Below the pieces are notes generated by a model. That model did not search any database. It saw nothing but the letters and a program-made list of their open reading frames with translations, and was not told the origin of the DNA. Below, in pieces: positions 8,088-49,126 of a stretch of DNA of 64,000 bases (its first letter is position 1; every line of letters starts with the position of its first letter). Made by a program: the position numbers and the translations under genes. Source of the stretch: Shigella phage TB004; the sequence record MW822011; one strand, written 5' to 3'.

Positions 8088-8705
8088 TTATGCCTTACTA
8101 AATTTGCCTTTAGAGTCTCTTTTCATGAGACGACCTTTAATAAATCCGTCGGGAATAATACCGTCTGGTTGTATTAATTTATTTATTACGCCATTATTGA
8201 CCCAAAAAGTTCCTGTGGTAGTCGGTTTAACTTTACATCCTTTTCTAGACTTTCTATTAGGATGAACCATCCCTTTTACAAATCCTTCTGGAACAAGTTC
8301 TCCAGGTTTAATAAAAATATTTTTAGTTCCATTAGTGTAACAAGTTTTACCTAATACCGTGCCTGGTGAGTTTTCAAATCTTTTAGCGGAAGATTCTTTC
8401 ATCTTTGCTATAACCTCTGTAGTCATAACAATTCCACCAATTCCACCGGGTTTCATATTATAATAATTTTTGCTTTTTATTAGTTCAGGAGTTATAATTT
8501 CTTCTTCATACATGTACGCTTCTTCGGAAGTTTTAAACTCTTTTAGTATTTTTCTAGAGAAATTGTTTTCACCATATTTCTTTATAGCCTGCTGAATTGC
8601 CTTACCGGAACCAAGGTAACCATCATTCAAGTCGTCAGTAGAATGCTTTCCTATATACTTTTTACCGTTTATTAGATTTGTTGTTTCATATACAAAGTGG
8701 TACAT
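8088..8705 (-). CDS. segD: GIY-YIG homing endonuclease (SegD-like)
   Basis: 205 aa, N-terminal GIY-YIG motif (HFVYETTNLINGKKYIGKH...YLGSG), between inh and uvsW as T4 segD. Confidence 0.65.
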   Translation of the reverse strand: MYHFVYETTNLINGKKYIGKHSTDDLNDGYLGSGKAIQQAIKKYGENNFSRKILKEFKTSEEAYMYEEEIITPELIKSKNYYNMKPGGIGGIVMTTEVIAKMKESSAKRFENSPGTVLGKTCYTNGTKNIFIKPGELVPEGFVKGMVHPNRKSRKGCKVKPTTTGTFWVNNGVINKLIQPDGIIPDGFIKGRLMKRDSKGKFSKA

Positions 8706-47287: not shown

Positions 47288-47360
47288 TGGGAATTAGCCA
47301 AGTTGGTAAGGCACTGGATTTTGATTCCAGGATGCAAAGGTTCGAGTCCTTTATTCCCAG
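47288..47360 (+). tRNA. tRNA-Gln (anticodon UUG)
   Basis: Cloverleaf by hand: acceptor TGGGAAT/ATTCCCA, anticodon loop TTTTGAT, T-arm AAAGG-TTCGAGT-CCTTT. Confidence 0.85.
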
Positions 47361-47361
47361 C

Positions 47362-47448
47362 GCGAGAATGGTCAAATTGGTAAAGGCACAGCACTTAAAA
47401 TGCTGCGGAATGATTTCCTTGTGGGTTCGAGTCCCACTTCTCGCACCA
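47362..47448 (+). tRNA. tRNA-Leu (anticodon UAA), long variable arm
   Basis: Acceptor GCGAGAA/TTCTCGC, loop CTTAAAA, T-arm GTGGG-TTCGAGT-CCCAC, encoded CCA. Confidence 0.85.
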
Positions 47449-47453
47449 AATTT

Positions 47454-47527
<74 letters not shown>

Positions 47528-47537
47528 ATTTAATTTA

Positions 47538-47611
47538 CTCCGTGTAGCTCAGTTTGGTAGAGCGTCTGCTTTGGGAGCAGAATGTCGCAGGTTCAAATCC
47601 TGCCGCGGAGA
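47538..47611 (+). tRNA. tRNA-Pro (anticodon UGG), no encoded CCA
   Basis: Acceptor CTCCGTG/CGCGGAG, loop TTTGGGA, T-arm GCAGG-TTCAAAT-CCTGC. Confidence 0.8.
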
Positions 47612-47613
47612 CT

Positions 47614-47703
47614 GGAGGCGTGGCAGAGTGGTTTAATGCACCGGTCTTGAAAACCGGCAGTCGCTCCGGCGACTCATAGGTTCAAATCCTATCGCCTCCG
47701 CCA
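47614..47703 (+). tRNA. tRNA-Ser (anticodon UGA), class II
   Basis: Acceptor GGAGGCG/CGCCTCC, loop CTTGAAA, long variable arm, CCA. Confidence 0.85.
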
Positions 47704-47708
47704 GTTTT

Positions 47709-47784
47709 GCTGATTTAGCTCAGTAGGTAGAGCAACTCACTTGTAATGAGAAGGTCGGCGGTTCGATTCCGTCAATCAGCACCA
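47709..47784 (+). tRNA. tRNA-Thr (anticodon UGU)
   Basis: Acceptor GCTGATT/AATCAGC, loop CTTGTAA, CCA. Confidence 0.8.
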
Positions 47785-47785
47785 A

Positions 47786-47860
47786 GGCCCTGTAGCTGGA
47801 AGGTTCAAGCAAGCGACTCATAATCGCCAGATGGTGGTTCAATTCCACCCAGGGCCACCA
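47786..47860 (+). tRNA. tRNA-Ile (anticodon CAU, lysidine type) or Met
   Basis: Acceptor GGCCCTG/CAGGGCC, loop CTCATAA, CCA; T4 carries Ile with CAU at this position. Confidence 0.8.
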
Positions 47861-47873
47861 AATTAAGAATTAA

Positions 47874-47960
47874 GGGGAGTTATCCCGTAGAGGTAGCGGT
47901 GTGGACTGTAAATCCATTGTCATTGCGACTCGGGTGGTTCGACTCCATCACTCCCCACCA
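47874..47960 (+). tRNA. tRNA-Tyr-like (anticodon GUA), class II, or tRNA-like stable RNA
   Basis: Acceptor GGGGAGT/ACTCCCC + A + CCA; anticodon loop CTGTAAA; T-arm GGTGG-TTCGACT-CCATC; D-arm imperfect. Confidence 0.55.
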
Positions 47961-47964
47961 ATTT

Positions 47965-48039
47965 GGATGTGTAGCTCAGTGGTAGAGCAGTTGACTGTTA
48001 ATCAATTGGTCCATGGTTCGAATCCATGCATGTCCGCCA
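47965..48039 (+). tRNA. tRNA-Asn (anticodon GUU)
   Basis: Canonical cloverleaf: acceptor GGATGTG/CATGTCC, D-stem GCTC/GAGC, loop CTGTTAA, T-arm CATGG-TTCGAAT-CCATG, CCA. Confidence 0.75.
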
Positions 48040-48164
48040 AATTTGTGACAACTGTCACATTAATATCTACTTGACGCGATTATAGGGTTGAACTGATCAC
48101 TCTTCTCTTAATTTCGTGTGAAGACATCTTGATTGTTGGAGTAGGTATTAATGTGAACTAATTA

Positions 48165-48241
48165 CGGGGTGTAACTCAATTGTATAGAGTAGCGGTCCTC
48201 TAAACCGCAGGTTAAAGGTTAGAATCCTTTCACCCTGGCCA
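48165..48241 (+). tRNA. tRNA-Arg (anticodon UCU)
   Basis: Acceptor CGGGGTG/CACCCTG, D-stem ACTC/GAGT, anticodon stem GCGGT/ACCGC with loop CCTCTAA, T-arm AAAGG-TTAGAAT-CCTTT, CCA. Confidence 0.7.
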
Positions 48242-48262: not shown

Positions 48263-48817
48263 ATGAGAAGTGATGTAGACTGGGACCAAATTAATTTGGC
48301 TATAAAAGCTGGATTAATATACCGTGGTAATTTTGAAATAACACAAGAACTAATTGAAAATGTTGCTTTTCTTAAAATAACAGACAAGAAAAAATTCTTT
48401 TCTATGACTAAAGCCAAACGCTTGTCAATATGGAAAGTATTTTGTAGGACTGCCGCCCTAAATCTTTTGAAATTTAAAGATGAATTTGATATAGAAAAAA
48501 GCTATCGGCAAGCTTTCGTATACATAATGGTAGATACTACAAATCCTAATTATTATAAAATAGGAAGAAGTATAGAACCCGATGTTAGAGTTATAACAGC
48601 AAATACATTTTCACCGTTTAAAAGTTTTAAAATAGTATCATTTAGATATTCCCAGGATGCAGTAGAACTTGAAAAATATATGCACAGCATTTATAATCAG
48701 GACCATATAAATGGCGAATGGTTTTTCTTTCATGACATAAGTTCCATAGTTAAAAAATTAGATACTAAATCTACACAATTTGAAATACCAAATGAGAAGC
48801 CGGGTCGCTACCGGTAA
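48263..48817 (+). CDS. hypothetical protein with C-terminal T5orf172 (GIY-YIG-related) domain
   Basis: 184 aa; C-terminal FVYIMVDTTNPNYYKIGRS...VELEKYMHSIYNQDHINGEWFFF fits T5orf172/MUG113 pattern; begins 22 nt after tRNA-Arg. Confidence 0.6.
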   Translation: MRSDVDWDQINLAIKAGLIYRGNFEITQELIENVAFLKITDKKKFFSMTKAKRLSIWKVFCRTAALNLLKFKDEFDIEKSYRQAFVYIMVDTTNPNYYKIGRSIEPDVRVITANTFSPFKSFKIVSFRYSQDAVELEKYMHSIYNQDHINGEWFFFHDISSIVKKLDTKSTQFEIPNEKPGRYR

Positions 48818-49126
48818 GTCGTCGGACTGATGTTCCCTGCGTAAGGACTGGTCTTAATAAATCTTTACGATTTGTTAATATCCCCTTACATCACAGCAGA
48901 AACGGCGCACCGAATTATCGATTCGAGGAAATATCTTTGCCGTAAGCCGAGTAGCGTTTTTGACGGAACGTTCGGATATGGTCGAGATATGGCCTTTTAA
49001 AAATATTGAGTAGCGTCAACTACTTAATAACCGGGTTCGAATCCCGGCGTTTCGTACAAACACTTGCCTTAGCAGGTGGAACCCCGACAAGGTATATAGC
49101 CCCTTCCGAAAGGTTGGGGCTTTTTT
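48818..49126 (+). ncRNA. candidate structured non-coding RNA region (possibly stable RNA(s) co-transcribed with the tRNA array) ending in an intrinsic terminator
   Basis: About 310 bp with no ORF of 60 aa or more on either strand in an otherwise compact genome; hairpins incl. CCGGG-TTCGAAT-CCCGG (49031-49047, tRNA T-arm-like) and AGCCCC...GGGGCT+T6 (49098-49126). Confidence 0.3.
49098..49126 (+). terminator. intrinsic terminator closing the tRNA-region transcript
   Basis: AGCCCC-(12 nt loop)-GGGGCT then T6. Confidence 0.6.

Follow-up and report, generated by a model that had tools for sequence, protein, structure and literature searches.

Tyrosine and asparagine tRNA genes in the T2-type, segB-less tRNA operon of Shigella phage TB004

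Between the CAU-anticodon tRNA and tRNA-Arg of Shigella phage TB004, two cloverleaves can be folded in the interval where T4 has segB, and the question raised by this locus is what they encode. The DNA analyzed was a stretch of 64,000 nucleotides from sequence record MW822011, referred to here as the window. In a first-pass annotation made from the sequence alone, the cloverleaves at 47874-47960 and 47965-48039 were read as a Tyr-like (GUA) and an Asn (GUU) tRNA, and two possibilities were named: an expanded tRNA set replacing segB, or the tRNA-like stable RNAs. The window belongs to a Tequatrovirus, a T4-like phage. Over the tRNA array and the sequence on either side of it, identity is 98% with Escherichia phage 236Ecol005PP and 93-97% with other Tequatrovirus genomes, and the tRNA cluster is matched by 884 phage records. 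The best explanation overall, to which a probability of about 0.9 is given, is that the two cloverleaves are functional phage genes for tRNA-Tyr(GUA) and tRNA-Asn(GUU) in a T2-type operon without segB.

Ten tRNA genes were called by ARAGORN in the entire window. All are located on the plus strand between 47288 and 48241, in the order Gln, Leu, Gly, Pro, Ser, Thr, CAU tRNA, Tyr, Asn, and Arg(UCU). This order is the one obtained earlier by hand folding, and the coordinates proposed for Tyr and Asn agree with the ARAGORN calls to the base. The upstream part of the operon (47288-47860, plus strand; ARAGORN and Rfam) consists of Gln, Leu, Gly, Pro, Ser, Thr, and the CAU tRNA, an Ile2-like gene in its T2 allele. 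The layout of T4 given in the first-pass annotation, eight tRNAs with segB between Ile and Arg, is borne out by the T4 reference record (NC_000866), in which the genes follow in transcription direction as Gln, Leu, Gly, Pro, Ser, Thr, Ile, segB, Arg, rnaD, and rnaC. The position of the T4 segB is occupied in the window by Tyr, Asn, and a 125-nt spacer. The absence of segB from the array was likewise confirmed, as tblastn searches of the window with the T4 and T6 SegB proteins found no orthologue inside the tRNA array; the sole match was a 31%-identical seg paralogue on the minus strand at 8121-8651, 40 kb away.

The claim that the flanking genes form the canonical T4 set holds for the order and for the UCU-anticodon Arg gene in last place, but the CAU tRNA is a T2 allele and the Arg gene a rare one. 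The CAU tRNA (47786-47860) is identical to the gene called 'tRNA-Met' in T2, unlike the tRNA-Ile allele of T4 and T6. The designation 'Ile-CAU' is functionally plausible for it, because its nearest E. coli relatives are annotated as tRNA-Ile and AUA codons are strongly enriched in the window (16.0 per 1000 vs 2.4 in the E. coli sample described below). The tRNA-Arg(UCU) gene (48165-48241, plus strand; ARAGORN; Rfam, 59.3 bits) has a D-loop, AAUUGUAUA, that contains no GG, and a T-loop, UUAGAAU, with A in place of the usual C56 (T-arm GGTTAGAATCC). No match to this gene was obtained in blastn searches with the Arg genes of T4, T2, and REP1, and relatives of the allele were found at 90% identity or more in about 17 phage records.

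The possibility that the cloverleaves represent the stable RNAs of T4, species 1 (rnaC) and species 2 (rnaD), which do have tRNA-like 3' ends and lie in the same operon, is refuted, since homologues of rnaD (48792-48911, plus strand; 87.6% identical to T4 rnaD over 119 nt by blastn, and aligned) and rnaC (48918-49056, plus strand; 99.3% over 139 nt, likewise aligned) are found separately downstream of tRNA-Arg, T4 rnaC and rnaD give no blastn match to 47874-48039, and both candidates are complete cloverleaves with 7-nt anticodon loops.

The second of the two cloverleaves is a canonical class I tRNA-Asn (47965-48039, plus strand), called by ARAGORN and by Rfam, with a score of 72.6 bits and an E value of about 2e-15 against the tRNA family RF00005. 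It has the anticodon loop CUGUUAA, G73, and an encoded CCA (3' end GUCC-G-CCA). The identity elements recognized by AsnRS are G34-U35-U36 and G73, and both are present in the gene. When it was aligned with the corresponding genes of T2, REP1, a P1-like phage, and E. coli (asnT), the differences in the anticodon and T stems were found to be compensatory.

The first cloverleaf is a class II tRNA-Tyr (47874-47960, plus strand), called by ARAGORN and by Rfam (30.2 bits) and supported by a family alignment with compensatory changes. It has a 7-bp acceptor stem (GGGGAGU/ACUCCCC), A73, and an encoded CCA. The variable arm, UGUCAUUGCGACUCG (GUC-AUUGC-GAC), is the same in T5 and T6, unlike that of E. 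coli tyrU. TyrRS identity elements are G34-U35-A36, A73, and a long variable arm, all of which can be read intact from the gene. The anticodon loop CUGUAAA (7 nt, with GUA, U33, and a purine at position 37) is invariant in 11 of 12 phage homologues, the remaining one having UUGUAAA. The 87-nt gene recurs unchanged (100% identity) in RB5 and AR1, at 98.9% identity in T2 and RB14, and at 97.7% (85/87) in T6; among the matches listed, at least seven phages carry it at 100% identity. The band of at least 99% identity comprises 143 records, and a homologue is present in 1,279 phage records. Although the Tyr gene is atypical, the observation is real and far beyond chance.

The atypical character of the gene is seen in its scores. 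The gathering score of RF00005 is 29 bits, so that in gathering mode the Tyr gene passes marginally with 30.2 bits, about half of what its neighbours reach (59-73 bits for the nine other tRNAs of the array); in E-value mode only a sub-threshold match to tRNA-Sec is reported (34.4 bits vs a threshold of 47). The D-arm had been described earlier as imperfect. This is indeed what the ARAGORN fold displays, in which a 2-nt linker is forced and the D stem becomes UCCC/GCGG with a C-C mismatch, but it is a product of the folding register. An alignment of twelve homologues, covering T6, T2, T5, an Enterococcus phage, and a single phage each of Vequintavirus, Punavirus (P1-like), Karamvirus, Phapecoctavirus, Felixounavirus, Epseptimavirus, and Jiaodavirus, was used to compare the registers. 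The register with the 2-nt linker pairs in 30 of 48 cells across the family; with CCGU/GCGG as the D stem, all 48 cells are paired. The latter register gives a canonical loop, AGAGGUA (A14, R15, G18-G19, A21), and leaves 4-5 nt between acceptor and D stem instead of the usual 2. The D stem of T5, CUGU/GCAG, is a double compensatory change relative to CCGU/GCGG. Thus, the canonical core of a class II tRNA-Tyr, a 2-nt linker together with a fully paired D stem, is not found in the gene of the window. The low covariance-model score is probably due to this unusual linker, as are the conflicting GenBank labels under which the same gene appears: tRNA-Tyr, 'tRNA-OTHER', and 'tRNA-Pseudo-GTA'.

These properties could also be taken to indicate a decaying or non-decoding tRNA-like RNA that acts outside translation, for example as a nuclease decoy. 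The Rfam tRNA score is only 30.2 bits, with a sub-threshold tRNA-Sec match as the top-scoring one, the linker of 4-5 nt ahead of the D stem is non-canonical, and some records annotate the gene as 'Pseudo-GTA' or 'tRNA-OTHER'. In T6, moreover, tRNA-Tyr is reported to be rather unstable and to be a Septu substrate itself, and its overexpression protects the host tRNA-Tyr in part from degradation (PMC13096335), as would a decoy. Such a reading is nonetheless very unlikely. The sequence is 100% conserved across many phages, and the acceptor stem, A73, CCA, and the loop CUGUAAA are intact. The acceptor, anticodon, and variable-arm stems show compensatory substitutions in the 12-member alignment, and in at least six phage groups every stem of the Tyr tRNA has been kept through such changes. 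The long linker is not a sign of decay, because it is a family-wide trait rather than a lesion and is present in the functional gene of T5. According to the T5 record, tRNA-Tyr of that phage is an efficient amber suppressor once its anticodon is changed; the T5 homologue, which has the same linker and an identical variable arm, is therefore charged and used by the ribosome. A 'pseudo' call by tRNAscan-SE is therefore not a reliable ground for rejecting the Tyr gene, given that close homologues are experimentally functional in spite of the labels 'OTHER' and 'Pseudo-GTA'.

Tyr and Asn are thus genuine phage tRNA genes, and the arrangement without segB is already known and ordinary. The earlier suggestion that the expanded set might be new does not stand, for it is found both in the literature (PMC2330249) and in routine annotation. 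The tRNA regions of T2L, RB1, and RB3 were sequenced and found to be without segB, and T2L carries tRNA-Met, Tyr, Asn, and Arg (Brok-Volchanskaya 2008, PMC2330249). Tyr and Asn are annotated at this position in the closest genome, in T2, in REP1, and in dozens of listed records, and the segB-free Tyr/Asn arrangement is annotated in hundreds of T4-like genomes. As in the window, segB is absent from T2L, RB1, and RB3, and the block consists of a CAU tRNA (labelled 'Met'), Tyr, Asn, and Arg. T2 shares with the window an identical CAU tRNA, a Tyr gene at 98.9% identity, and a SegB site with the same five discriminating nucleotides. Several differences can also be seen. The window keeps tRNA-Thr at a place that in T2, after Ser and before the CAU tRNA, is occupied by an ORF; the Asn alleles of T2 and the window differ in the anticodon and T stems, where the changes are compensatory; the gap between Asn and Arg is 7 nt in T2 and 125 nt, with a structured element, in the window; and the Arg allele and the ORF downstream of it are different.

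Comparison with other phages places the window in the history of the locus. T6 has a Tyr gene with the same variable arm (85 of 87 positions identical, as given above) in the same position after the CAU tRNA, but in T6 segB follows directly after Tyr and Asn is lost, whereas the window has Asn and no segB. T4 resembles the window in the order Gln, Leu, Gly, Pro, Ser, Thr and in rnaD and rnaC (88% and 99% identical), but its segB stands directly after the CAU tRNA in place of Tyr, Asn, and the spacer, its CAU-tRNA and Arg alleles are different, and no ORF lies between Arg and rnaD. T5, a member of the Demerecviridae, has a Tyr gene 84% identical to that of the window, with the variable arm UGUCAUUGCGACUCG, the unusual 4-nt linker, and the D stem CUGU/GCAG; it differs in that its tRNA cluster reads Tyr-Glu-Trp-Phe and has a strong promoter of its own. 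Because T6 with segB lacks Asn, and T4 with segB lacks both Tyr and Asn, each at the place of segB, the window carries the uninvaded, segB-less allele. Thus, the proposal of an expanded tRNA set in place of segB was correct in that the extra Tyr and Asn genes stand where T4 has segB, but the set did not displace segB. The likely history is that of the segB-less recipient allele known from T2L, RB1, and RB3.

The tRNA-Asn gene is of particular relevance to this history. The preferred cleavage site of SegB lies in the 3' part of the tRNA-Asn gene, and in mixed infection T4 SegB converts a region of about 1250 bp to the T4 form (PMC2330249). The 27-bp site is defined as starting with GGTTCRANTCC and having the discriminating nucleotides G6, A16, G18, A26, and A27 (PMC2330249). 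As reconstructed from the numbering in that paper, the T2 site is GGTTCGAATCCTATCACGTCCGCCAAA, and the counterpart of the T2L tRNA-Asn site in the window, located at 48015-48041, is GGTTCGAATCCATGCATGTCCGCCAAA. The site in the window retains the 11-nt core and all five discriminating nucleotides, and differs from that of T2 at 4 of 27 positions only (12-14 and 17). The tRNA-Asn gene of the window carries, at the level of sequence, an intact site of the type preferred by SegB, and is thus a candidate cleavage target. In a mixed infection with a segB-positive phage, the locus would then act as the recipient and may be converted to the segB-containing form without Tyr and Asn.

Other sources of the Tyr and Asn genes were also considered. 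Recent copying from the host was rejected, as the matches in the E. coli chromosome are just 80-90% identical. Matches of at least 90% that span both Tyr and Asn were found only in E. coli replicons of about 70-200 kb annotated with Tyr, Asn, and Thr, and the same three tRNAs are present in a Punavirus (P1-like) phage.

The spacer between Asn and Arg contains a conserved structured element of 102 nt (48054-48155, plus strand), supported by its minimum free energy (MFE), its conservation, and a covariance model. It folds into a long hairpin (MFE -33.3 kcal/mol, z = -3.8) in which an outer stem of about 14 bp encloses an almost invariant core. No credible Rfam family was found, and the matches with E values up to 10 were just snoRNA and lncRNA noise at E values of about 1 or more. 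The element occurs in 355 phage records, belonging to Tequatrovirus (at least 95% identical), Karamvirus (about 87%), Jiaodavirus (about 79%), and a Vequintavirinae phage, in which it lies between other tRNAs. Every copy has the orientation of the tRNAs, and at those Tevenvirinae loci that were examined tRNA-His follows just downstream of it. The window has lost the tRNA-His next to it. With the covariance model, a single copy was detected in each genome, on the same strand as the tRNAs; there was no second copy in the window and none in the T4, T6, T2, T5, and Felixounavirus loci. Pattern scans of IMG/VR for more divergent members retrieved four T4-like contigs only.

In the 102-nt element, 8 of 29 predicted pairs have changed on both sides, and many pairs are G-U, a type that can form in the plus-strand RNA only. 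A less likely possibility is that the spacer holds a micro-ORF on the minus strand, 15 aa long in the window and about 22 aa in relatives. In the Vequintavirinae copy, 2 of the 4 codon changes counted are synonymous, which speaks for it, but no Shine-Dalgarno sequence was seen for the micro-ORF, the allele of the window is truncated by a 1-nt deletion, the core of the spacer does not vary between genera even at third codon positions, and the G-U pairs, of which there are many, would not form on the minus strand. A promoter or terminator was also sought in the spacer; a consensus scan found none, and a -35-like TTGACG is not conserved in relatives. Seven sequences together with four metagenomic copies suggest that the element is an undescribed structured RNA of the tRNA operon, which may be a processing signal or a stable RNA.

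A second neighbouring feature is an ORF of 184 aa between tRNA-Arg and rnaD (48263-48817, plus strand), with a MUG113/T5orf172 domain (Pfam PF13455, E = 4.5e-9; PF10544, E = 4e-6). These domains belong to the GIY-YIG clan, and one homologue of the ORF is annotated as 'putative GIY-YIG nuclease family protein'. The ORF is inserted between tRNA-Arg and rnaD, and its stop codon lies 26 nt into rnaD. In the junction alignment, the heptamer just ahead of rnaD, ATACCAA, corresponds to the 3' end of the T4-type tRNA-Arg. The insertion junction is thereby placed where a tRNA gene ends, the kind of position at which SegB-type enzymes cut. Homologues of the ORF adjoin tRNA genes in T5-like and Klebsiella phages.

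A broader interpretation is that the variable block downstream of the CAU tRNA, made up of Tyr, Asn, and the 102-nt RNA (with His in relatives), forms a mobile counter-defence and processing cassette that goes beyond a codon supplement. This is considered unlikely as a whole, and its parts can be stated separately. Colicin E5-type anticodon nucleases target tRNAs with GUN anticodons, and the GUN-anticodon tRNAs of the cassette would be supplied against nucleases directed at this class. The hairpin at 48054-48155 would be a precursor processing signal or a third stable RNA. The rare Arg gene, whose T-loop breaks the GGTTCRANTCC core recognized by SegB, would be a cleavage-immune copy that arrived with the T5orf172-type gene.

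For the preferred reading, in which Tyr and Asn are working tRNA genes of a T2-type operon, the function is to be found in expression and use of the tRNAs. By analogy with T4, Tyr and Asn would be transcribed together with the other eight tRNAs and with rnaD and rnaC, and then excised from the precursor. They would add decoding capacity for the codons UAU and UAC, and AAU and AAC, whose frequencies are those observed below and from which a benefit may be expected. The codon comparison was made between 64 long ORFs of the window and 42 annotated genes of E. coli K-12. Tyr amounts to 42.0 vs 26.0 per 1000 codons (1.62-fold) and Asn to 58.4 vs 37.6 (1.55-fold), and these two, along with Lys, are the amino acids most over-represented relative to the E. 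coli sample. The source of the excess is UAU (32.0 vs 14.1) and AAU (43.0 vs 13.8). The idea that the two tRNAs complement the codon bias of the phage is therefore supported by composition; it is not, however, the sole role in the published record, because a counter-defence function has been described for the tRNA-Tyr of T6 and T5.

Most of this evidence comes from T6. Septu EcB88 cuts tRNA-Tyr within the variable arm, and the tRNA-Tyr of T6 itself has been seen by northern blot (Chihara et al. 2026, PMC13096335). T6 is rescued from Septu by overexpression of tRNA-Tyr or by its SegB-mediated amplification and is sensitised by deletion of the tRNA-rich region, and T4, without a tRNA-Tyr gene, is unable to escape (PMC13096335). 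The phage tRNA is relatively unstable and is also cleaved by Septu, so that protection requires amplification or overexpression (PMC13096335). According to the summary given in the same paper, tRNA-Tyr of T5 neutralises retron-Eco7; the primary paper on evasion of retron-Eco7 by phage tRNAs is that of Azam et al. (2024, PMC11555353). The tRNA-Tyr of the window may by analogy replenish the pool when Septu PtuAB or retron-Eco7 cleaves tRNA-Tyr. Because the window is without segB, a SegB-driven tandem amplification of Tyr like that in T6 is not available in cis. No counter-defence role of phage tRNA-Asn was found in the literature, so that for Asn there is only the demand argument.

It may be asked, then, whether Tyr and Asn, though functional, owe their retention chiefly to counter-defence against host nucleases that cleave tRNAs rather than to codon supply. 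Counter-defence has been reported for the tRNA-Tyr of T6 and T5 against Septu and retron-Eco7 (PMC13096335, and PMC11555353 as summarised there). The variable arm, the place where the nucleases cut, is the same in the window, T6, and T5 and different in E. coli tyrU. The Tyr gene, moreover, is common to unrelated coliphage groups at 85-97% identity, which suggests horizontal spread under a common selection, and the variable module of relatives, Tyr-Asn-His, comprises three GUN anticodons. Against this, demand alone predicts Tyr and Asn, which together with Lys show the highest enrichment over the E. coli sample; a single wild-type copy of tRNA-Tyr does not protect T6 from Septu (PMC13096335); and a phage tRNA-Asn is not known to counter any defence system, one published test, in which a phage tRNA-Asn failed to rescue phages from PrrC170, being negative (PMC11555353). 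Counter-defence as the main reason for keeping both genes is thus a tentative alternative that carries some weight but is less probable than not being so. For tRNA-Tyr, both roles, codon supply and counter-defence, are likely.

The extra Tyr and Asn genes themselves matter little as a finding: They were mapped in 2008, are widely annotated, and have a recent, experimentally supported role in T6 and T5. What novelty is left is modest and concerns the structured element nearby and the unusual build of the Tyr tRNA family. More promising leads than the Tyr and Asn genes are the 102-nt element and, at the Arg/rnaD junction, the nuclease-like ORF. General tRNA models score the Tyr family poorly, and a poor score does not speak for a pseudogene. 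With its SegB target intact, as judged from the site comparison, the phage would probably lose Tyr and Asn on co-infection with a segB-positive phage, which may be of relevance to phage cocktails.

The spacer between tRNA-Asn and tRNA-Arg (48040-48164, plus strand) contains a conserved hairpin element of 102 nt (48054-48155), for which no match was found in Rfam. Folding of this element gave z = -3.8; base pairs altered on both sides accounted for 8 of 29, and G-U pairs were numerous. The element was found in 355 phage records from Tequatrovirus, Karamvirus, Jiaodavirus, and one Vequintavirinae phage. Each genome carries it once, on the same strand as the tRNA genes; T4, T6, and T2 lack it. 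A minus-strand micro-ORF, 15 aa long in the window, is a less likely reading.

In the Tevenvirinae loci examined, a tRNA-His gene lies directly 3' of the hairpin element. The window has lost this gene. In relatives that retain it (in phage REP1, at 2294-2369), T precedes G1 of tRNA-His, as read from the alignment only. Because this base is T, these relatives apparently do not encode the G-1 that bacterial tRNA-His typically has.

On the other side of the spacer, tRNA-Arg(UCU) (48165-48241, plus strand) is a rare allele: copies that are at least 90% identical occur in about 17 phage records. The D-loop of this tRNA is AAUUGUAUA, without the usual G18-G19, and in its T-loop, UUAGAAU, an A replaces C56; U19-A56 tertiary compensation is possible. 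The T-arm, GGTTAGAATCC, disrupts the GGTTCRANTCC core recognised by SegB (PMC2330249), which is broken in only two tRNAs of the array, those for Arg and Gly. A seg-type GIY-YIG paralogue with about 31% identity to T4 and T6 SegB is located at 8121-8651 on the minus strand, distant from the array.

Between tRNA-Arg and rnaD, an ORF of 184 aa with MUG113/T5orf172 domains has been inserted (48263-48817, plus strand), its stop codon lying 26 nt within rnaD. The ATACCAA immediately 5' of rnaD matches the 3' end of T4-type tRNA-Arg; therefore, the insertion junction coincides with the 3' end of a tRNA gene. In T5-like and Klebsiella phages, homologues of the ORF are likewise found adjacent to tRNA genes. 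The ORF is probably a homing-endonuclease-like gene of the free-standing type.

The CAU-anticodon tRNA (47786-47860, plus strand) is the T2 allele, identical to the T2 'tRNA-Met' and different from the tRNA-Ile allele of T4/T6. Its nearest E. coli relatives are annotated as tRNA-Ile, and AUA codons are enriched about 7-fold in the window versus an E. coli sample.

The tRNA-Tyr (5' part, 47874-47900) was compared with those of T-even, Vequintavirus, Felixounavirus, T5-like, and Jiaodavirus phages and an Enterococcus phage (loci L004-L014). Throughout this phage tRNA-Tyr family, the linker from acceptor to D stem is 4-5 nt rather than 2, and the D stem CCGU/GCGG is constant, with a double compensatory change in T5 as the sole exception. 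The linker lowers the general tRNA-model scores, and probably explains the 'tRNA-OTHER' and 'Pseudo-GTA' annotations.

A Tyr/Asn/Thr tRNA trio was also observed on E. coli replicons of about 70-200 kb, whose Tyr and Asn genes share about 90% identity with those of the window, and in a Punavirus (P1-like) phage, whose Tyr gene shares 92%. Thus, related tRNA genes are present in these unrelated elements.
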